NCBI GenBank assembly: GCA_041651335.1
Contig: JBAZJL010000002.1
Span: 1-32,000 of the forward strand
Length of the DNA: 32,000 nt
Reading direction: 5' to 3'
From: Minisyncoccota bacterium
GTDB taxonomy: Bacteria > Patescibacteriota > Minisyncoccia > Minisyncoccales > Minisyncoccaceae
The notes beneath the pieces were generated by a model. That model was not told the DNA's origin and did not search any database. It saw nothing but the letters and a program-made list of their open reading frames with translations. A program made the translations under genes and the position numbers. Of this stretch, positions 1-19,572 are shown in pieces; position 1 is the stretch's first letter; every line of letters begins with the position of its first letter.

Positions 1-3000
1 CTTGATCAGAATATCTATAAAATTGTAAATATTTTTCATAATATCCATTTTGAGAAGCTAGGGTAAAATTAGAAGTAAGGGCGCTACCATCAGATAGAAC
101 CGTAATCGTTGTTCCGTTTGTTCTTAATTCATAAGTATGATTTCCGGGGTAGTTAGTACTATTATAAATAGTTGATCCTGAATTTTCTCCAATAAATAAA
201 TCGGGTGTGCCATCATTTCCTGAAAACGTTGACATATTTTGCATAACATTGATTGAAGTTGAATTGGTTAAATAAAACCCACCATACCACCAAAGACCCT
301 GCCCAGAAGATTCATATTGTTTTGCATAATATCTTACGGCATAACCATTTCTTAAATCATATGCCTGGTTACTTTTTAAATAACAACCAGCATAAGAAGC
401 ATACGCAGAAGATCTAGCAGTAACAACTAATTCTCCGCTGACTATTGAAACAGATCCGCCACTATTAGTCCCTTCGCATGTTGCTGTCCATTTGCTTGTA
501 TTGATAGTGCCTGAATTAAAATCATCGAATAAAACAAATGTATTATCTCCACTGCTGACGCTAACTGCTGAAGCATTGCCATAATAAATATAAATAGTAT
601 TACTACCAGAAGCAAGGCTTGGTGCTTTAACCCAAAAAGTGGCAGTTGAAGAATCTGTTTTTGATTCTAACCAATAACTTAATTCCGTTGTTCCATCTGA
701 AGCAGTAAAACGGATATCATCAAAATCAGCTTGCATGTCAGAGTCATAAGCAACAACCACTTTAACTTGATAATTTGTTAAAGCCGATGATGATGAAACT
801 GTTACTGGTTTTCTTTTTGAATAATTTGTTAACCATGGCGAGCTAGCCGTACATGTCCATGCCCATGGACCAGAACCAGAAACAGCAGAAGCTGTTCCCG
901 CAGAACAAAGATTAGTTGTTGGTGCTATTGAAAATGTTCCACCATTAGATGATCCACAAGTGCCAACACCTACTACAACTATATTCGCCGAACAACTTAC
1001 AGCCAAAGAATCATTGCCAATACAAGTCCAAGTGTAAGTTGTTTCTCCAGTGGTGACAGAAGATGCTGTGCCATAGGTACAAAGATTTGTTGAAGGAGCA
1101 GATGAAAATGATCCGCCATTAGATGATCCACAAGTAGTTTTGTAAGTATAACAAGCTGCGTCTACGCCTGGATTATTAGTACAAGACCAAAGCCAAATAT
1201 TACTCGAAAGATTTAAAGTGGTATTGCTTCCATAAGCACAAAGATTGGTTGAAGGCTGATCTCTTCTCACGGTATTGTGATATGTTCCGCAAGCAACTTT
1301 TGGAGCAGAACAACTAGCTGTTGTTCCCCCGCCAGAACCAGTACATGACCAGGTCCAAGAAGAACCAGCATCAGCAAACGAAGTAAATGTTCCAGTAGCA
1401 CATCTTTCGGCGACTGTATCAATTTCACTAGTTGAAGTATATCCATGAGTATTGGCTGTTCCACAAGAACCATTAACAGATGTTAAATTAGCAGAACAGC
1501 TGGCTGTTGTTCCGCCATTGATTCCATTACAAGTCCAAGTCCAAGGTCCGGTTCCAGAAACAGCAGAAGACGTTCCCGCAGAACAAAGATTAGTTGAGGG
1601 CGCTGTTGAAAATGTTCCACCATTAGATGATCCGCAAACACCGTTAACTGTTCGGCTGGCTGAACAACTAGCTGTTGTTCCCCCGCCAGATCCAGTACAT
1701 GACCAGGTATAAGTTGAAGCATTGGTTGTTACTGATGTTGCGCTTCCCGCAGAACAAAGATTAGTTGCTGGTGCCGTTGAAAATGTTCCACCATTAGATG
1801 ATCCGCAAGTGCCATTAACAGGCACTACTCTAGTCGCTGAACAGTTGACTGCCAAAGAATCATTACCAGTACAAGTCCAAGTATAGGTTGTTTCTCCAGT
1901 AGTGACAGAAGATGCTGTGCCATAAGTACAAAGATTAGCTGAAGGAGCAGACGAAAACGATCCGCCATTAGATGATCCGCAAGTAGTTTTGTAAGTATAA
2001 CAAGCTGCGTCTACGCCTGGATTATTAGTACAAGACCAAAGCCAGACATTACTCGAAAGATTTAAAGTGGTATTGCTTCCATAAGCACAAAGATTGGTTG
2101 AAGGCTGATCTCTTCTCACGGTATTGTGATATGTTCCGCAAGCAACTTTTGGAGCAGAACAACTAGCTGTTGTTCCCCCACTAACCCCAACACAAGACCA
2201 AGACCAAGAAGAGGTATTGTCTGTAAATGATCCGCTAAATGTTCCTGCTGAACATCTTTCCGCGGCTGTATCAATATATGATGTTGCTTGATATCCATGA
2301 GCATTAGCTGTTCCGCAAACACCATTAACTCTACTGCAAATACTAAATGTGCTTATGTTTCCAATCACATATTCACGAATTAAATAAATATCATCAAATT
2401 CTCCATCACCATTTCCATTAACGTCGATTAAATTTAATGGCAATGTTTCTATTTGAGAAAATGCTACTTGCACATCATAATAATTAATAGATCCATTTTG
2501 GCTAGTATCTCCATAAGAACCACAAGGAATTGAACGGCTTAATTGATTAGAGCTACAAGAAGCTGTTGTTCCACCATTAGAGCCTGCACAAGTCCAGCCA
2601 AAGGTTGTTGCATTGGTTGTTACTGAAGAAGCAGTACCTGTATTACAAAGATTAGTTGGCACATCATAAGAAGATTGGCCATTAGCAGAACCGCAAGAGC
2701 CGTTCACTACTATCAATCTAGTTGCCGAACAACTAGCTGTTGTTCCGCCATTTGAACCTACGCAATTCCACGTGTAAGTTGTGTCTCCAGTTGTTACTCC
2801 TGTTTCAGTTCCTTGATAACAAAGATTACTAGAAGGAGCAGAGGTAAATGAACCTCCGCTAGAGGGACCACAAATTCCATCAATTGGTGTGGCGCCCTCA
2901 CCACCCATTAACCAAATCATGTCTGCACCCTCATAAGACACTACCGTATAATAACAAGTTTTACTTGTACCTCCATTGTGTCCACTACAATTAGCAACGC

Positions 3001-7166: not shown

Positions 7167-8714
7167 ATGAATTCAATTAAAAAAACTATTCTTTCTCCAA
7201 ATAATAAAAAACAAGACATTATCATTCCTCAAAATGTCTTTTTCTGTATAAACACTTTAAAAGACCACGGTTTTACAGCTTTTATTGTTGGCGGATGTAC
7301 TCGTGATTTTCTTAGAGGAATAGAGCCAAAAGATTGGGATATTGCTACAAGCGCTACCCCAGAACAAATCCAAGAAGTATTTAATAAGTTAAATATTAAG
7401 ACTTTTTATGAAAATAATTTTGGCACAGTTGGCCTGGAATTTTTAAAAAACAAAAAATCAAAATCCGAAAATCAATACGAAATTATTGAAATAACTACCT
7501 ATAGGTCTGAATCTTCTTATTCAGATAGCCGACATCCAGATAAAGTAGCTTGGTCAAAAACCATTGATCAAGACTTAAAAAGAAGAGATTTTACTATTAA
7601 CGCAATTGCCCTATCCCCTTTAAAAAATAAGCAAGAATTTGAAATATTTGACCTATTTAATGGCCAAGAAGACCTAAAAACCCATTTAATTAAAGCTGTA
7701 GGAGACCCAAAAGAAAGATTTAAAGAAGATGCTTTAAGAATGATGCGGGCCATAAGATTTGAAGCCAGCCTGGGAAACAATTGGCAAATTGAAAAAAACA
7801 CTTATCAAGCCATAATCGAGTGCTCAAAAGGATTACAAAAAATATCAACCGAAAGAATCAGAGACGAGTTAAATAAAATAATTATGACAAAAAATGCTGC
7901 CAAAGGCATTGATTCTTTAAGGCAATCTGGACTTTTAAATTATATAATTCCCGAACTTTTAGAAGGCTGTAATATTTCCCAAAACAAACATCATGTTTAT
8001 GATTGTTATAAGCACAACTTAGAATCTCTTGATTATACAGCCAAAAAGGGCTTTAGCTTCCCTATTCGTTTGGCTGCATTGTTGCACGATATTGGAAAAC
8101 CAAGATCAAAACAAGGAACCGGCAAAGAGGCTACTTTTTATAATCATGAAATGATTGGTGCCCGAATGGCCCAAAAAATATTAGAAAGACTGCGCTATCC
8201 CAAAAAAGAATGCGAAAAAATTATTACTTTAGTTCGTTTTCATTTGTTTTATTATAATGTTGACGAAGTAAAAGAAGCATCTATTCGTCGGCTAATAAAC
8301 AATGTTGGAATAGAAAATATAGAAGATTTATTAAAATTAAGAATGGCTGATCGAATTGGAAGCGGATGTCCAAAAGCCGAACCCTACAAACTAAGACATA
8401 TGAAATATATGATTGATAAGGTTTCTCGAGATCCAATTTCTGTAAAAATGTTAAAAATTAATGGCTTAGATTTAATAAAAATTCTAAAAATTGAACCTGG
8501 ACCAAAAATTGGACAAATATTAGATATTTTGTTAGAAGAAGTATTGGATAATCCGAAAAATAATACTAAAAAATACTTACAAAAAAGGGTAAAAGACTTA
8601 GCAAGCTTAAATGAAATTGATTTAATTAAATTATCCAATCAAGCCAAAAAAACTAAACAAACAATGGAAAACAAAGCCAATGAAGAAATAAAAGGAAAAT
8701 ATTGGGTTTGTTAA
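7167..8714 (+). CDS. cca: CCA-adding tRNA nucleotidyltransferase with an HD domain
   Basis: 515 aa. It contains FIVGGCTRDFLRG..DWDIAT and RRDFTINA, plus the HD region AALLHDIGKP. Confidence 0.9.
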   Translation: MNSIKKTILSPNNKKQDIIIPQNVFFCINTLKDHGFTAFIVGGCTRDFLRGIEPKDWDIATSATPEQIQEVFNKLNIKTFYENNFGTVGLEFLKNKKSKSENQYEIIEITTYRSESSYSDSRHPDKVAWSKTIDQDLKRRDFTINAIALSPLKNKQEFEIFDLFNGQEDLKTHLIKAVGDPKERFKEDALRMMRAIRFEASLGNNWQIEKNTYQAIIECSKGLQKISTERIRDELNKIIMTKNAAKGIDSLRQSGLLNYIIPELLEGCNISQNKHHVYDCYKHNLESLDYTAKKGFSFPIRLAALLHDIGKPRSKQGTGKEATFYNHEMIGARMAQKILERLRYPKKECEKIITLVRFHLFYYNVDEVKEASIRRLINNVGIENIEDLLKLRMADRIGSGCPKAEPYKLRHMKYMIDKVSRDPISVKMLKINGLDLIKILKIEPGPKIGQILDILLEEVLDNPKNNTKKYLQKRVKDLASLNEIDLIKLSNQAKKTKQTMENKANEEIKGKYWVC

Positions 8715-8785: not shown

Positions 8786-8807
8786 CTTTTTATTATTATG
8801 TCCGCAT

Positions 8808-8875
8808 ATTAAATTATGTGGACATAATATAGAAAAATTTTGTCCAGATTTGTCCACAAACAAATTATCTGGACA
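8808..8875. promoter_or_regulatory. Cluster of DnaA-box-like TGTCC(A/G)CA / TGTGGACA motifs (left cluster)
   Basis: TTGTCCACA at 8850-8858 matches TTATCCACA at 8/9 positions. TTGTCCAGA at 8840-8848 and TGTGGACAT at 8817-8825 each match at 7/9. Weaker TGTCCGCA and CTGGACA motifs are also present. Confidence 0.4.
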
Positions 8876-8879
8876 TTCC

Positions 8880-8950
8880 CGGGATGTAATATAAAGGCAT
8901 TATGCAGGCTTCGGGAGTCTGTAATCTGGGTTCAATTCCCAGCATCCCGA
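8880..8950 (+). tRNA. tRNA-Pro (anticodon CGG)
   Basis: Acceptor is CGGGATG/CATCCCG. Anticodon stem is CAGGC/GTCTG with loop TTCGGGA. T arm is CTGGG-TTCAATT-CCCAG. Discriminator is A and no CCA is encoded. Confidence 0.88.
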
Positions 8951-9265
8951 CCCATTATTTCACTGGGAATTGAAGGCGGAGGGCCGACGGGCCCGAGCCC
9001 GGCCTGACCGAAACTTCACCAGAAGTTTACGCGAAGGCAATTCCCAACATCCCGACCCATTATTTCACTGGGAATTGAAGGCGGAGGGCCGACGGGCCCG
9101 AGCCCGGCCTGAGCGAAACTTCACCAGAAGTTTACGCGAAGGCAATTCCCAGCATCCCGACCCATTATTTCACTGGGAATTGAAGGCAAAGGGCCGACGG
9201 GCCCGAGCCCGGCCTGACCGAAACTTCACCAGAAGTTTACGCGAAGGCAATTCCCAGCATCCCGA
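8951..9265 (+). repeat. Three tandem 105-bp units. Each holds a GC-rich three-helix module plus a copy of the last 18 nt of tRNA-Pro.
   Basis: CAATTCCCAGCATCCCGA occurs at 8933 (inside the tRNA), 9038 (one mismatch), 9143 and 9248, giving a period of 105 bp. The modules lie at 8963-9047, 9068-9152 and 9173-9257. Confidence 0.95.
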
Positions 9266-9324
9266 CCATTAGTTTTGTTGAGAATTAAGGGCAAATGGCC
9301 GATTAAGACCAAGTCAAGGCCTAA

Positions 9325-9395
9325 GGATCCGTAATTTAATGGTAAAATACTGCTTTCACACAGCAGCGACATGAGTTCGATTCTCGTCGGATCCA
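9325..9395 (+). tRNA. tRNA-Val (anticodon CAC)
   Basis: Acceptor is GGATCCG/CGGATCC. D stem is ATTT/AAAT. Anticodon stem is CTGCT/AGCAG with loop TTCACAC. T arm is ATGAG-TTCGATT-CTCGT. Discriminator is A and no CCA is encoded. Confidence 0.9.
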
Positions 9396-9493: not shown

Positions 9494-9521
9494 ATATTCA
9501 ATCCAATGTCGCACAATATTA

Positions 9522-10285
9522 ATGTTCCACGTAGAACATATTGATTTTTAGATACCCCTACGTATTTTAGAGACGAATGATTAGCTGTTTCAGACAAAAT
9601 GAAAATATTTTAGAAAACATTTCTCCTAAAAATCATTAATCATTTAAGATGTTGTTTGTTTTATTGTTTAAAAATTAATGATGTTCCACGTGGAACATTC
9701 AATTTTTATGCTCTTAAAACATATGTTTATTGATGATCATGGTTTTGGGACAAAATTACATTTTAAAAAACTTTTGCTTTCCTAAAAATCATTAATCATT
9801 TAAGGTGCTGTTATGTTATTATTCTGTAAAATTACGTGTTCCACGTGGAACATTAATGTTTTTTATAGATTAAAATGCCATATTATTAATCATCTATGTT
9901 TTTAAGGAAAAATGTTTTCTAAAATATTTTCATTTTGTCAAAAATCATTAATCATTTAAAGTGTTATTTGTTTTATTGTCTAAAAATTAATGATGTTCCA
10001 CGTGGAACATTAAACTTATATATACTTAAAACTTACAATCATTGATGATCATGGTTTTGGGACAAAATTACATTTAAAAAAACTTTTGTTTTCCTAAAAA
10101 TCATTAATCATTTAAGGTGCTATTATGTTATTATTCTGTAAAATTACGTGTTCCACGTGGAACATTAATGTTTTTTATAGATTAAAATGCCTTATTATTA
10201 ATCATCTATGTTTTTAAGGAAAAATGCTTTTCAAAATATTTTCATTTTGCCTGAAACAGCTAATCATTCGTCGCTAAAATACGTA
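9522..10285. repeat. AT-rich repeat block with five regularly spaced GTTCCACGTGGAAC palindromes, alternating ~156-bp units (A-B-A-B), bounded by 68-bp inverted repeats
   Basis: Palindromes lie at 9522-9539 (one mismatch), 9681-9698, 9837-9852, 9993-10010 and 10149-10164. The marker AAAAATCATTAATCATTTAA recurs at about 9628, 9783, 9939 and 10095. The inverted repeats at 9559-9626 and 10218-10285 differ at about 6 of 68 positions by my count. Confidence 0.9.
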
Positions 10286-10336
10286 AAAACATAAAATTTT
10301 TAATAAAAAACACTAAATAATCTACTATAGTCTTTA

Positions 10337-10470
10337 TGTGGACATAAAATGTTACTTAAAACAAACATTATGTCCACTAATGTCCACTAAATTTTAATGG
10401 ACAAGGTATGTGGACAATTATGTGGAAAAACAATGATTTATGTGGACAAATCCGGACATATTATTTGGAC
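10337..10470. promoter_or_regulatory. Cluster of DnaA-box-like TGTGGACA / TGTCCAC motifs (right cluster)
   Basis: Three boxes match TTATCCACA at 8/9 on the minus strand: TGTGGACAA at 10409-10417, TGTGGAAAA at 10421-10429 and TGTGGACAA at 10441-10449. TGTGGACAT at 10337-10345 matches 7/9. There are also two TGTCCACTAA motifs at 10371-10390 and weaker GGACA motifs. Confidence 0.4.
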
Positions 10471-10559: not shown

Positions 10560-10961
10560 ATGGCTAATTGTTTTAAGGTTGGAAAAATAGGGGAATTAAT
10601 TGCTGAAAAATATTTACAAAAAAACAACTATCAGATAATAGATAGAAATTTTTATTTAATAAGCAAAACAACGAATAAAAAAATAGGGGAAATAGATTTG
10701 ATTGCGAAAAAAAATAAAACCCATATCTTTGTAGAAGTAAAAGCAACTTGCAAAAAGGGCCTAAAAATACCATTAGAGGGTAAAATAAATAAGAAAAAGA
10801 AGAAAAGAATGATTATTGTAAGCGAGGCCTGGCTTTTAAAAAACAAATTGGGCTTTACCATCCCTTGGCAAATTGATATAATCACTATTGAAATTAATTT
10901 GATGGATAAAAAAGCTAGAGTCAAACATTATCAAAACGCAATTGAAGATATAAAAAAATAA
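10560..10961 (+). CDS. yraN: YraN-family (UPF0102) endonuclease-like protein
   Basis: 133 aa. It contains GELIAEKYL, GEIDLIA and FVEVKA. Its stop overlaps the plsY ATG (TAATG). Confidence 0.75.
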   Translation: MANCFKVGKIGELIAEKYLQKNNYQIIDRNFYLISKTTNKKIGEIDLIAKKNKTHIFVEVKATCKKGLKIPLEGKINKKKKKRMIIVSEAWLLKNKLGFTIPWQIDIITIEINLMDKKARVKHYQNAIEDIKK

Positions 10962-11557
10962 TGGAAAAACAACTAATTTTTATTTTTTTCTTAATCGCTG
11001 GATATCTATTAGGATCAATTCCTTTTGGCTACATTATTTCAAAAACAAAAAATATTGATATTCGTAAAAAGGGGAGTGGAGCCACGGGCGCAACCAATGT
11101 TTCTCGTTTTTTAGGACTAAAATATGCTATTTTAGTAGCAGTTTTAGATATTTTAAAAGCTATTATTCCAATATTTTTTGCTAAGTTTTATTTTCAGCCA
11201 GGAATAGAATTGGCCTTGATTTCCATTGCTCCAGTTTTAGGCCACATTTTTCCGGTTTGGCTTAATTTTAAAGGAGGGAAAGGGGTTTCTGTTATTTTTG
11301 CTTCTATAATTATGGTGATTGGATGGAAATATTCATTAATTATTTTGGCTTTTTGGGTTTTATTTTTATTCATTATTAAGATTATGAGCTTAACAAATAT
11401 TCTTCTTTTCTTAATCCTGCCTTTTCTTTTCTGGTATTTAACTCATTCTTATATATATGTAGGTCTGGGAATTTTTTATGTTTTGATTATCTGGTGGGCT
11501 CATCGAGAAAATATCAAACGATTATTGCAGGGAACTGAGCCAAAAATTATAAAATAA
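10961..11557 (+). CDS. plsY: Glycerol-3-phosphate acyltransferase PlsY (acyl-phosphate dependent), paralog 1
   Basis: 198 aa polytopic membrane protein. It contains LLGSIPFGYIISK, KGSGATGATNV and GHIFPVWLNFKGGKGVS. Confidence 0.9.
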   Translation: MEKQLIFIFFLIAGYLLGSIPFGYIISKTKNIDIRKKGSGATGATNVSRFLGLKYAILVAVLDILKAIIPIFFAKFYFQPGIELALISIAPVLGHIFPVWLNFKGGKGVSVIFASIIMVIGWKYSLIILAFWVLFLFIIKIMSLTNILLFLILPFLFWYLTHSYIYVGLGIFYVLIIWWAHRENIKRLLQGTEPKIIK

Positions 11558-16475: not shown

Positions 16476-17198
16476 ATGGCCTTATTTCCAATTTTGTTAA
16501 TTATTGCTATTTTCTCTTATCTTCTTGGCTCTATTCCTTTTGCACTTGTTTTCAACAAATTAATTTTTAAACAAGATCCTCGTCAAACTGGATCAAAAAA
16601 TTTAGGAGCTTTAAATACTTTAAGAATTAGCACAGAAAAAAAAGGAAAAATAATTGGAGCCCTGTCTTTTTTAATTGTATTTCTCTTGGATGCAGGTAAA
16701 GGGGTAATTGCTGTTTTTTTCGCTCAAAAATTAGCCTTAGCCACAATTACTAATCCTCTTTTACTTGGCCCGGAAGGAACTTCTGTTATAATTTTAGTTG
16801 CTTCGATGGTTGCTGCTTTACTTTCAGTTGTTGGCCATAATTACTCGCTTTATCTTAAATTCAAAGGCGGTCGAGGAGCGGCAACCTTGTTTGGTATTAC
16901 TTTATTTTTAAATTGCCAACTTGCTTGGCTTTGGGCTGGTATCGTTCTTTTAGTAATAATTATTGGAGAAATTTTAGCTGGCCATAAATTTAATAAAAAA
17001 TTAATTCCCCAGGCTATAAATAATCAAATTTTGGGACGTTTGATTGGAGAAATCCTAGGCTTAGGATTAATTTATTTTCTTAATCCTTATATTTTTGCTA
17101 TTGTTTGTTTGCCCTTATTGCCAGTGCTTTTAGCCCATTCTGATCGCCTAGAAGAACAAATGAAAAAAATTAAAGCAAAAAATTACTTAGCAAAATAA
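16476..17198 (+). CDS. PlsY-family acyltransferase, paralog 2
   Basis: 240 aa. It contains LLGSIPFALVF, GSKNLGALNTLR and GHNYSLYLKFKGGRGAAT. Confidence 0.75.
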   Translation: MALFPILLIIAIFSYLLGSIPFALVFNKLIFKQDPRQTGSKNLGALNTLRISTEKKGKIIGALSFLIVFLLDAGKGVIAVFFAQKLALATITNPLLLGPEGTSVIILVASMVAALLSVVGHNYSLYLKFKGGRGAATLFGITLFLNCQLAWLWAGIVLLVIIIGEILAGHKFNKKLIPQAINNQILGRLIGEILGLGLIYFLNPYIFAIVCLPLLPVLLAHSDRLEEQMKKIKAKNYLAK

Positions 17199-17199
17199 A

Positions 17200-17865
17200 A
17201 TGCCTCAACTTTTATTATATTTTTGTTTTTTTGTTTTTTCTTATCTTTTGGGATCAATTCCTTTTAGTTATTTGATTACAAAAATTTTTACTAAAAAAAA
17301 TGTTTTTGAATTAGGTTGGAAAAAAAGTTCGGCCAGCAATGTTATTAAAAACATTGGAAAATTACCAGGAATTTTAGCTTTTTTATTGGATGTTGGTAAG
17401 GGATTTTTAGTGGTTTATTTGGCTCAACAATTGCAATTTTCTTCTTTTCTTCAAGCCTTGGCTGGAATTTGCGCAATCTTAGGACACAATTGGTCTATTT
17501 TTGTAAAAGGCAAAGGAGGAAGGGGTTTGGCCACTTTAGTTGGCGCTGTAATCGGGTTTTCTCCTGTTTTTCTTTTTATTATTGTTATTCCTTGTATTAT
17601 TTTTACTTTTATTTGGACTGCTTCAATCGGCACGATTTTATCTTTAGTGTTTGGAGTTTTTTTGGGTTTTGCTTTTGCAAAGTGGCAAGCGCCTGGATTT
17701 TTAATTTTGATTTCTCTTCTGCCAATTTTTATTAAACGACTAAGTCCGATTAAAGAAATAAATAACATTACTGATCAAGGGGAAAAAAGAGCATTAATCG
17801 AAAACAGACTTTTGTTTGATCAAGACACGGTTCCCAGCTTTCGCATTAAATTTTTTAAAAAATAG
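17200..17865 (+). CDS. PlsY-family acyltransferase, paralog 3 (divergent N-terminal motif)
   Basis: 221 aa. It contains LLGSIPFSYLITK and GHNWSIFVKGKGGRGLAT. The GSGN.GATN motif is degraded to KKSSASNVIKN. Confidence 0.65.
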   Translation: MPQLLLYFCFFVFSYLLGSIPFSYLITKIFTKKNVFELGWKKSSASNVIKNIGKLPGILAFLLDVGKGFLVVYLAQQLQFSSFLQALAGICAILGHNWSIFVKGKGGRGLATLVGAVIGFSPVFLFIIVIPCIIFTFIWTASIGTILSLVFGVFLGFAFAKWQAPGFLILISLLPIFIKRLSPIKEINNITDQGEKRALIENRLLFDQDTVPSFRIKFFKK

Positions 17866-17907
17866 TTTTGACTTTTTTGTTAATAAGTTGTATTTTTTAT
17901 ATCTAAT

Positions 17908-17979
17908 GCCCCCGTAGCTCAACGGATAGAGTTCTGGTCTTCGGAACCAGCGGTGTGGGTTCGAATCCTGCCGGGGGCA
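17908..17979 (+). tRNA. tRNA-Arg (anticodon TCG)
   Basis: Acceptor is GCCCCCG/CGGGGGC. D arm is GCTC-AACGGATA-GAGT. Anticodon stem is CTGGT/ACCAG with loop CTTCGGA. T arm is GTGGG-TTCGAAT-CCTGC, with two wobble pairs. Discriminator is A and no CCA is encoded. Confidence 0.86.
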
Positions 17980-17980
17980 C

Positions 17981-18021
17981 CCTAATACAAAAGATGGCTC
18001 CATGCCATCTTTTGTATTAGG
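17981..18021 (+). other. Perfect 18-bp hairpin immediately 3' of tRNA-Arg
   Basis: CCTAATACAAAAGATGGC-TCCAT-GCCATCTTTTGTATTAGG. Its 3' arm overlaps the 5' arm of the GC-rich module that follows. Confidence 0.7.
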
Positions 18022-18215
18022 ATTGATTCGAAGCCGGAGGGCCGACGGACCCGAGGCAGGCCCTGAGGAATTTTCAGTAGAAAATTACCGAAGGGCGAAT
18101 CCTGCCGAGATATTTTTGAAGGCGAATCCTGCCGAGATATTTTTGAAGGCGAATCCTGCCGAGATATTTTTGAAGGCGAATCCTGCCGAGATATTTTTGA
18201 AGGCGAATCCTGCCA
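18019..18215 (+). repeat. One GC-rich three-helix module (18019-18103) followed by five tandem 27-bp units that re-copy the module 3' edge and the tRNA-Arg T-arm 3' strand
   Basis: GGCGAATCCTGCCGAGATATTTTTGAA starts at 18094, 18121, 18148, 18175 and 18202 (the last copy is decayed). CGAATCCTGCCG is identical to tRNA-Arg positions 17962-17973. Confidence 0.93.
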
Positions 18216-18359
18216 AAATTCTTTTTAAAAGCAAATTTTTTAGCTTAATAATTCAAATACAAAGCCATAACAACGGCAAACAAAAAATAAACAAGTTTTA
18301 CTAAAATTTTACCCAAAAACAAAAAAATAGTGGATTTAGGCTTTAAGTAGTCTTTTCTC

Positions 18360-18884: not shown

Positions 18885-18957
18885 GCCCCGTTAGCTCAGT
18901 TGGTAGAGCAGGAAGCTCTTAACTTCAAGGTCGTGGGTTCGAATCCCTCACGGGGCA
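18885..18957 (+). tRNA. tRNA-Lys (anticodon CTT)
   Basis: Acceptor is GCCCCGT/ACGGGGC. D arm is GCTC-AGTTGGTA-GAGC. The anticodon loop is CTCTTAA. T arm is GTGGG-TTCGAAT-CCCTC, with one T:T mismatch. Discriminator is A and no CCA is encoded. Confidence 0.86.
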
Positions 18958-19411
18958 CAAACGAACACATGACAGGATAGAAAATATTGATTAATTTAAA
19001 ACGCCGATTAACGAAAGAGGGATTCGAAGCCGGAGGGCCGACGGGCCCGAGGCAGGCCTAAGCGAAACTTCACCAGAAGTTTACGCGAAGGCGAAACCTC
19101 ACGGGGCACAAACGAACACATGACAGTATAGAAAATATTGATTAATTTAAAACGCTGATTAACGAAAGAGGGATTCGAAGCCGGAGGGCCGACGGGCCCG
19201 AGGCAGGCCTGAGCGCAATTTCACCAGAAATTGACGCGAGGGCGAAGCCTCACGGGGCACAAACGAACACATGACAGTATAGAAAATATTGATTAATTTA
19301 AAACGCTGATTAACGAAAGAGGGATTCGAAGCCGGAGGGCCGACGGGCCCGAGGCAGGCCTGAGCGCAATTTCACCAGAAATTGACGCGAGGGCGAAGCC
19401 TCACGGGGCAC
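18958..19411 (+). repeat. Three tandem ~151-bp units. Each has a 60-nt AT-rich spacer, a GC-rich three-helix module and a copy of the tRNA-Lys 3' end.
   Basis: CCTCACGGGGCAC occurs at 18945 (in the tRNA), 19097, 19248 and 19399. The modules lie at 19017-19100, 19168-19251 and 19319-19402. Units 2 and 3 look identical. Unit 1 differs by paired substitutions in a hairpin. Confidence 0.95.
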
Positions 19412-19572
19412 ACAAAAGACCACGACAAAGAACAAGATTGATAGATAAAAAATTAAACAAGGAAGAAAGGAAAAAGTATTTTTTAAAAATTAACAATTAA
19501 ATATCGAAGAGACACCTGTTTTGGTTAAAAAACTAAAACAAGGCGCATAATAAAAAGTAAAAAAATAAAAAA

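Follow-up and report, generated by a model that had tools for sequence, protein, structure and literature searches.

Three tRNA genes in the 32,000-nucleotide window analysed here (positions 1 to 32,000 of contig JBAZJL010000002.1, from a Minisyncoccota bacterium) are followed by copies of a small non-coding repeat, a structure-dependent element that is anchored to the neighbouring tRNA gene and specific for it. Each unit (94-151 bp, without an open reading frame (ORF) of its own) consists, from 5' to 3', of a copy of the tRNA from C56 to discriminator +1, a locus-specific AT-rich spacer, a 12-nt guide and a GC-rich core of 63 nt, which comprises two hairpins, P2 and P3. Even in the most conservative reading this is a new structured nucleic-acid family, supported by covariation and present only in bacteria of the Candidate Phyla Radiation (CPR). 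Judging from the comparison of related sequences, the family behaves like a mobile element, and it is tentatively proposed below, as a possibility that falls somewhat short of even chances, that it is a guide-directed, self-copying element that inserts at U55|C56 of its tRNA gene and brings its own tRNA 3' end along.

Behind tRNA-Lys(CTT) (18885-18958, plus strand, called by ARAGORN and Rfam) three units of 151 bp follow one another on the same strand, at 18959-19109, 19110-19260 and 19261-19411, each with a pseudo 3' end of the tRNA, just as an earlier note made from the letters of the window had described. In unit 1 the spacer (18959-19016) leads into the guide GAGGGATTCGAA (19017-19028), the core (19029-19091) and the pseudo 3' end CGAAACCTCACGGGGCAC (19092-19109), while the guide, core and pseudo 3' end lie at 19168-19179, 19180-19242 and 19243-19260 in unit 2, and at 19319-19330, 19331-19393 and 19394-19411 in unit 3. 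The units end in CGAA(A/G)CCTCACGGGGCAC, a slightly decayed version of the tRNA's CGAATCCCTCACGGGGCAC. Tandem Repeats Finder places the array at 18946-19412 (period 151, 3.1 copies, 97% matches, score 871), the 0.1 copy in excess of three being CCTCACGGGGCAC of the tRNA itself, so that the tRNA is indeed in phase with the array, as the note had held. The identity that it saw between units 2 and 3 is complete (0 differences), and its suggestion of two module alleles in one array is borne out: unit 1 differs from the other two at nine positions, four of which make up two compensatory P3 pairs (C-G to U-A and A-U to C-G), and the resulting P3 (AACTTC/GAAGTT) is the same hairpin as the P3 of the tRNA-Pro array elsewhere in the window. 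In unit 2, P2 has an outer GCC/GGC helix and an inner GGGCC-GACG-GGCCC (19186-19199), and is followed by J23 (AGG) and by P3 (19208-19242) with its tandem G.A. The sequence 3' of the array does not significantly resemble a decayed spacer (score 2.0 versus -1.5 ± 3.7 in shuffles).

The guide was missed in the earlier note. In the Lys units it is made of the final three bases of the apparent spacer (GAG) together with the start of the module. It is the exact reverse complement of tRNA-Lys positions 54-65 (TTCGAATCCCTC, 18938-18949, plus strand, with C56 at 18940), i.e. of the T loop and the 3' strand of the T stem; the guide of the tRNA-Pro units, CTGGGAATTGAA, pairs with TTCAATTCCCAG. The tRNA copy 3' of the core has C56 as its first base in every case, and in the modelled fold the 3' end of the core (..GAAGG) adjoins this C56 with zero unpaired bases once the guide helix has formed.

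The fold of the unit, a three-way junction of P1, P2 and P3, is real. It was returned by RNAalifold from 17 copies, with double changes in 19 of the 26 pairs and with P1 formed by the guide and the downstream tRNA copy. P2 is a GSC/GSC helix around a GC hairpin with loop GACG, and the AT-rich P3 has the form CCU-GA-stem-loop-GA-AGG with loop ANCA. A search of the window and 12 related loci with a covariance model (R1, with rough E-values from a quick calibration) gave 34 copies; in their alignment 93.1% of the cells pair, compared to 69.9% in shuffles and 24-52% in slid controls, both sides change in 27 of 31 pairs, and P2 and P3 pair at 96-99%. This alignment was fitted to the model and so leans towards it, but the independent RNAalifold result and variants read by hand agree with it. 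Compensatory variants occur at every P2 and P3 pair, with hand-read examples for P2 being GCCAC-GACG-GTGGC, GGGCU-GACG-AGCCC and GGCGC-GACG-GCGCC (from the compared loci L001, L088 and L007, respectively). Few unpaired nucleotides are invariant, and there are copies that manage without the tandem G.A or the P2 internal loop. The pairs in P2 and P3 comprise 607 Watson-Crick, 3 G.U and 3 A.C, and this near-absence of wobble fits folding as single-stranded DNA.

The comparison between relatives identifies the genuine tRNA as the conserved partner of the guide, with the downstream copy having the character of a relic. The guide matches its own tRNA at 12 out of 12 positions in 12 of the 28 scored units (and at L016 Gln too, after manual correction of a mis-parsed T loop), and at at least 9 in nearly all. 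Three tRNA-Lys alleles are found in the relatives (TTCGAATCCCTC, TTCGAGCCCTCC and TTCGAACCCTCC), which differ at T-loop positions 59-60 and in the stem, and the guides change in step with them (..GGGATTCGAA, ..GGGCTCGAA and ..GGGTTCGAA), loops ..GAAT, ..GAGC and ..GAAC going with guides ATTC.., GCTC.. and GTTC.., respectively. At L165 Lys the guide matches the present tRNA but the copy downstream retains the other allele (CGAATCCCTC), and L161 Arg likewise combines one allele in the 3' part of the tRNA and in the guide with another in the downstream copy. At the ten loci where copy and tRNA differ, the energy of the guide duplex favours the tRNA nine times, with one tie; two further A-U pairs, with U54 and U55, contribute about 2.5 kcal/mol to this preference, and once that is discounted seven loci favour the tRNA and one the copy. 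In the minimum free energy (MFE) fold of tRNA-Lys plus unit 1 the guide pairs with tRNA-Lys 54-65 (z = -6.6), and the 5' acceptor strand of the tRNA pairs with the downstream copy. That the guide is simply a copy of the 5' half of the T arm was ruled out, as the Pro guide has AATTG, complementary to loop CAATT, GAGGG in the Lys guide differs from GTGGG in the tRNA's 5' strand, and the Thr guide has GACGG rather than GGGGG.

The junction between unit and copy is always GAAGG|C56, whereas the other end of the duplication differs by locus. On either side of the two-unit insertion at L161 Lys stands the same 46-nt direct repeat, which comprises tRNA positions 56-74 and 27 nt from the start of the trailer; its distal copy leads on into the native trailer, as at the empty site of L008. 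The repeat at L088 Arg takes in ~43 nt of trailer, that at L007 Ala none, and across loci the duplicated target measures from 19 nt to more than 60 nt. One fixed end and one locus-specific end imply that each locus acquired its GAAGG|C56 joint in an event of its own. Polymerase template switching was rejected as the origin of this joint, since it lacks microhomology (GAAGG|CGAA in the unit versus GGGTT|CGAA in the tRNA) and the predicted junction would keep the TT; an origin from mature tRNA was rejected as well, because the copies lack CCA and trailers are co-duplicated.

Turnover of the units is fast. Strains with identical S15 or pilin proteins carry different alleles or modules at the same sites, including other P3 alleles and a 5'-truncated module with P3 only; at the Arg site, strains with identical marker proteins include one with a wholly different core allele, as well as three instead of 4.5 of the 27-bp mini-units described below (unit counts are possibly affected by assembly collapse). 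L088 has a private P2 variant (U-A) in both of its modules, an instance of cores made uniform within one genome, and this shared variant, along with the Pro-array P3 in Lys unit 1, indicates exchange between loci. In a sister type of the module a small hairpin (CTTGATTG-TAA-TCAATCAAG) replaces the tRNA guide. In two different outer alleles (L016 and L162/L165) the sister type is found nested at the same position, inside the P2 loop of another module and after GAC(T)GG; it also sits in the loop of an unrelated palindrome at L006. Units without a core occur as guide-GAAGG-C56.. in L014, and as 27-bp mini-units in the window and in L011, and are attributable to deletion between GAAGG repeats. An apparently empty Lys site (L164) beside the filled L165 was discarded, being a scaffold gap of Ns.

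Some further observations concern these sites. A palindrome, AATGTTTGGGGG-loop-CCCCCAAACATT, recurs across Paceibacterota genomes (L006 100-135 and 230-250, minus strand; L165 1627-1656), and it is the loop of this palindrome that houses the sister-type module in L006. A second small repeat family, with inverted ends CCACTTCGC ... GCGAAGTGG and hairpins of the GCGAAGC type, is present at L001 4297-4420, L165 2403-2525 and L021 ~1160-1290 (minus strand), and in two lineages is inserted exactly after the module's tRNA-3' copy (..ACGGGGCAC|CACTTCGC..). Most public short-read contigs with this rpsO (L149-L158) start inside the tRNA-Lys array, from which it follows that the array breaks assemblies; the run of Ns in L164 is at the same place.

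The window holds two more such arrays. The core 20-mer GGAGGGCCGACGGGCCCGAG has seven matches in it with at most three mismatches (0.00 expected), all on the plus strand and each after a tRNA (three Lys, three Pro, one Arg). tRNA-Pro(CGG) at 8880-8952 is followed by three 105-bp units of the same family, the whole region spanning 8880-9324 on the plus strand, with guides CTGGGAATTGAA starting at 8963, 9068 and 9173, cores at 8975-9037, 9080-9142 and 9185-9247, and tRNA 3' copies starting at 9038, 9143 and 9248; a decayed fourth unit (TTGAGAATTAAGGGCAAATGGCCGATTAAGACC..GGCCTAAGG, 9268-9324) runs straight into tRNA-Val at 9325. In the Arg region (17907-18214, plus strand) tRNA-Arg(TCG) (17907-17982) is followed by a terminator-like hairpin, one module with an imperfect guide (18020-18032) and a core (18033-18095), and 4.5 perfect, core-less 27-bp repeats (GGCGAATCCTGCCGAGATATTTTTGAA, ~18094-18214). 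These mini-units run from C56 to G67, through AGATATTTTT, to GAAGG, and so have the boundaries of full units (C56 ... GAAGG); their number is three in the close strain L159 versus 4.5 here, and two analogous ones follow tRNA-Val in L011. The genes after the arrays are rpsO, tRNA-Val and an ORF resembling a type IV secretion system (T4SS) pilin, which is not what a type III toxin-antitoxin RNA array (ToxI-like) preceding its toxin would show. ORFs of ~100 codons traverse the arrays (8970-9272 and 18002-18304 in the window, 3078-3359 in L161), one of which is called as a gene in one public assembly, without a Pfam hit; the 105-bp Pro unit is divisible by three, and these ORFs are probably artefacts of the repeats.

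Beyond the window, with one genome scanned per species, the core was found only in metagenome-assembled genomes (MAGs) of Paceibacterota/Parcubacteria/Patescibacteria, other matches being chance hits in high-GC genomes. The modules follow same-strand tRNA genes for at least 12 amino acids, among them Lys, Arg (two anticodons), Pro, Thr, Cys, Ala, Ile, Ser, Leu, Val and Gln, and at each locus in the related Paceibacterota assemblies the core has tRNA-specific flanks. The distance from the tRNA to the first unit 3' of it is 10-63 nt, with the single exception of L001 Lys (125 nt), and the gap often holds a terminator-like hairpin. Nine of 10 related lineages have a filled Arg site, and the Lys site has 0-3 units in close relatives, module-free orthologues included. 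A tRNA-Cys with the unusual anticodon ACA (ARAGORN; L004 169-243, minus strand) also has a module after it. The pattern GAAGSCGGAGN5GACGN5GAGSC gives GC-rich chance matches in metagenomes: among the matches listed, 80 loci were screened with the covariance model, and one (L088) proved real. Six loci on viral contigs had the pattern, none of which was confirmed by the model, and blastn against phage and plasmid collections gave no match. The Rfam 15 gathering scan of the whole window found tRNAs only.

The earlier note had further proposed that imperfect T stems in tRNA-Lys and tRNA-Arg reflect exchange of their 3' portions with such units. The flaws themselves exist (U50:U64 in tRNA-Lys, two G.U pairs in tRNA-Arg), but for tRNA-Lys this origin fails, and by the very finding that the note named as decisive: array-less orthologues that share the mismatch were found in the syntenic L008 and L163, whose T arm is identical (GTGGG/CCCTC, U50:U64) and which lack a module between tRNA-Lys and rpsO. 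Moreover, the mismatch is due to T50, which is in the 5' strand, outside any segment that units could replace. The 3' strand CCCTC is the same in tRNA-Lys and in the intact flank copies, and the mismatch is common to lineages with a pilin identity to the window down to 64%. No array-less tRNA-Arg orthologue with an identical T stem was found among the relatives. A weaker form of the idea, in which the tRNA 3' part is replaced together with a unit, fits L165 Lys and L161 Arg, although ordinary recombination between strains explains the allele pattern at these two loci equally well.

How the guide-directed element proposed at the outset might work can be sketched as follows. The guide would pair with positions 54-65 of the cognate tRNA gene, or of its transcript, and this pairing would specify strand joining at U55|C56, through which a unit is inserted, or copied anew, into the T loop. 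Because the unit starts with its own copy from C56 to the end, the tRNA gene would be left intact, with the former 3' end being pushed downstream to become the pseudo 3' end. Repeated insertion, together with unequal recombination among the duplicated 3' ends, could then lengthen and shorten the arrays (clean deletion being possible), and gene conversion would swap core alleles from one locus to another. Beyond the points shown, what we infer is a joining reaction and an agent for it; a structure-specific enzyme acting on folded single-stranded DNA, by the logic of the IS200/IS605 transposons, is the favoured candidate, with a reaction at the RNA level as the alternative. In the strict form of this idea, minimal nucleic-acid-guided homing, the 12-nt guide and the ~63-nt core would programme the joining at U55|C56 of one tRNA, and the replacement 3' end carried along would make insertion harmless, a reading that is rather unlikely.

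The IS200/IS605 transposons, for which miniature derivatives (PATEs) have reportedly been described, use folded single-stranded DNA as their substrate, in which a short guide at the 5' side of the hairpin foot base-pairs to the upstream site of cleavage or insertion, and insert 3' of a fixed sequence. In the present element tRNA 54-65, spacer, guide and P2 follow one another as target, linker, guide and hairpin do there, and classical terminal inverted repeats are likewise absent. It differs in that its guide is 12 nt instead of 4 nt and mostly pairs with the first 10 bases of the element itself, in that its two hairpins are unlike each other while the known ends resemble each other, and in carrying a copy of the 3' part of its target. 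With such hairpins, and with no transposase among the 10 scanned ORFs, membership of that family is not claimed. Mobile group II introns recognise their target by pairing between exon- and intron-binding sequences (EBS-IBS), and here too a base-pairing guide within the element spans the proposed insertion site, so that specificity resides in the nucleic acid of the element; however, the 63-nt core has no Rfam match to a group II or group I core, there is no reverse transcriptase ORF, and the element is not spliced from a gene. Mobile GC-rich hairpin clusters and double-hairpin elements are reportedly found in AT-rich mitochondrial genomes, and these, like bacterial repetitive extragenic palindromes and mosaic elements (REP/BIME), share with the present family the GC-rich hairpins in an AT-rich genome, the insertions in hairpin loops, the nesting, the tandem arrays and the fast turnover at strain level, yet they have neither a target-specific antisense guide nor a tRNA 3' duplication, and there is no sequence relationship. 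Threading by hand gave no fit to twister, a kink-turn (C/D-like), group II domain V, integron attC or dif/Xer sites. A miniature inverted-repeat transposable element (MITE) was rejected because the inverted arms are specific for the tRNA rather than the element and the target duplication is of variable length, and CRISPR because the whole 151-bp unit repeats, spacer included.

Several points weigh against guided insertion. The comparison set consists of ~15 related lineages of one clade and all of the evidence is comparative; no transposase, integrase, reverse transcriptase or TnpA is found among the 10 window ORFs scanned, all of which are housekeeping; and an empty and a filled site in isogenic strains were not observed as a pair among the compared loci. 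Some guides match their tRNA at only 7-9 of 12 positions, and linkage alone could preserve the match of guide and tRNA in the absence of any function, since recombination would be expected to break within the conserved core. Arrays that end in truncated or core-less units (L009, L014 and the Arg array of the window) need extra deletion steps, and the Lys array of L152 has one unit instead of three, although assembler collapse is possible there. P2 (GC-rich, GACG) and P3 (AT-rich, ANCA) are without similarity, unlike the ends of IS200/IS605. Finally, the proposal leaves unexplained how the element reaches a new tRNA, or gains the matching guide and 3' copy.

The strong compensatory conservation of the fold and the retained complementarity between guide and genuine tRNA would also be expected if the element were a non-coding RNA of use to the host, in which the guide invades the T arm of the co-transcribed or mature tRNA, the tRNA copy serves as a competing decoy (P1), and the core, perhaps by binding a ligand or protein, decides between the two pairings and so tunes tRNA maturation or stability. 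The MFE fold with the guide on tRNA 54-65 (z = -6.6) and the filled Arg site in 9 of 10 related lineages agree with such a role, which is nevertheless rather unlikely. At many loci a hairpin like an intrinsic terminator lies between tRNA and module, the Lys site varies from 0 to 3 units in close relatives down to module-free orthologues, and the gene downstream is not consistent. As is usual for selfish repeats, some copies are nested, truncated or devoid of a core. Wobble pairs are not enriched, few unpaired nucleotides are invariant, and the tandem G.A and P2 internal loop are features that some copies can do without.

The family could also be a passive product of local duplication, without any targeting at all. 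An old trailer hairpin, being a partial inverted copy of the T arm, may have gained a GC-rich insert, so that the guide is no more than its closing strand; slippage and unequal crossover would then build the arrays, and gene conversion would homogenise the cores. The perfect 27-bp and 151-bp repeats do show active tandem amplification, the internal GGGCC and GAAGG direct repeats account for the recurrent partial and core-less units, the cores are mosaics between loci, and direct repeats of the tRNA 3' end permit clean loss. Passive duplication is nonetheless unlikely: it does not foresee a junction exactly at C56 at every locus despite locus-specific trailers and without microhomology, nor a guide that follows the tRNA rather than the strand with which it closes. 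Furthermore, the same core is present at tRNAs of at least 12 amino acids, each with a matched five-base complement of the T stem, and the sister type occupies identical positions in unrelated hairpins.

The position directly after tRNA genes, the compact three-way junction with its 3' end stacked on a substrate-like helix, and a guide laid out like an internal guide sequence would also suit a small self-cleaving ribozyme, which might cut at G|C56 to release unit-length RNAs, or exchange tRNA 3' fragments as RNA. For tRNA-adjacent ribozymes there is a precedent in the theta ribozymes, which are like the hepatitis delta virus (HDV) ribozyme and sit 3' of phage tRNAs (PMC10879173); nothing comparable to the present family was found in the literature searched, in which they are the nearest published idea. 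The likeness is that of a small structured RNA module directly 3' of tRNA genes, but here there is no HDV-like double pseudoknot, a spacer or terminator separates tRNA and module, a guide and a duplicated tRNA 3' end are present, and the units are chromosomal in CPR bacteria and not phage-borne. Scans of the Pro and Lys arrays with Rfam at E<=10 gave no ribozyme, intron or riboswitch over the modules, the families covered including hammerhead, HDV-like, twister, twister-sister, pistol, hatchet, hairpin, group I and II introns and T-box, and manual threading failed on both known candidates. In the case of the hammerhead, CUGA and GAA flank P3, but NGA (G8 and A9) is absent, CCU/AGG covaries as a continuous helix, and Watson-Crick pairs replace the tandem G.A in L004 Thr_a and L011 Ile_a; in the case of HDV-like or theta ribozymes, no spacer holds an upstream strand (for P1) complementary to the segment after P3. 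Given in addition the very few conserved unpaired nucleotides, putative core motifs that are Watson-Crick in some copies, and duplicated copies that hold trailer without CCA and so do not stem from mature tRNA, self-cleavage is quite improbable.

Integrative elements that target the tRNA T loop reportedly leave direct repeats of the tRNA 3' end, and such a repeat (C56 to discriminator +1) follows every unit here; as in those elements, the replacement 3' end would keep the tRNA intact and the old end would be displaced as a direct repeat. This is the classical integration signature from the T loop, but that the units are attachment (att) scars of integrase-mediated elements or prophages is effectively refuted by their anatomy and barely worth entertaining, as they are ORF-free and 94-151 bp long, carry neither cargo nor att arms, have the same structured core between the repeats at tRNAs of at least 12 amino acids, an RNA-like fold and an antisense guide instead of protein-binding core sites, a left arm that is an exact complement of loop and stem rather than a T-arm-like core site, and duplications of varying length, with no integrase among the 10 scanned window ORFs that flank the arrays.

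If guided insertion at U55|C56 were to hold, the element would be a compact one, with target choice residing in 12 bases of its own and a spare part for an essential gene carried along. It would then stand as a new type beside group II introns, IS200/IS605 guides, bridge RNAs and CRISPR-associated transposons, and offer a candidate scaffold for programmable insertion; should the chemistry lie in the RNA or DNA fold, or in a small enzyme that reads it, this would be programmable insertion machinery of a new class. Guided insertion would likewise provide a natural route for swapping tRNA 3' halves, and a reason for the breaks beside tRNA genes in short-read assemblies of Paceibacterota. In the conservative reading, the element marks hypervariable sites that are useful in strain typing, and the reduced genomes of these bacteria have hotspots of repeat turnover in the 3' flanks of their tRNA genes.

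With cca, nusA, plsY, rpsO and pnp, the window is a piece of housekeeping chromosome. The gene for the CCA-adding enzyme (7167-8714) ends one base 5' of tRNA-Ala, and there are three plsY (glycerol-3-phosphate acyltransferase) paralogues, two of them adjacent, with listed coordinates 10961-11557 and 16476-17865. Around the tRNA-Ala/Pro/Val cluster lies a possible replication-origin-like region (8790-8870 and 9500-10470), with five TGTGGACA/TGTCCACA boxes versus 0.3 expected, and with a 22-bp inverted repeat as its borders (9572-9593 and 10252-10273). The 16-bp palindrome TGTTCCACGTGGAACA occurs five times in an AT-rich 156/312-bp tandem repeat at 9624-10268. The cumulative GC skew reaches its minimum at ~7-8 kb, where gene orientation flips too.

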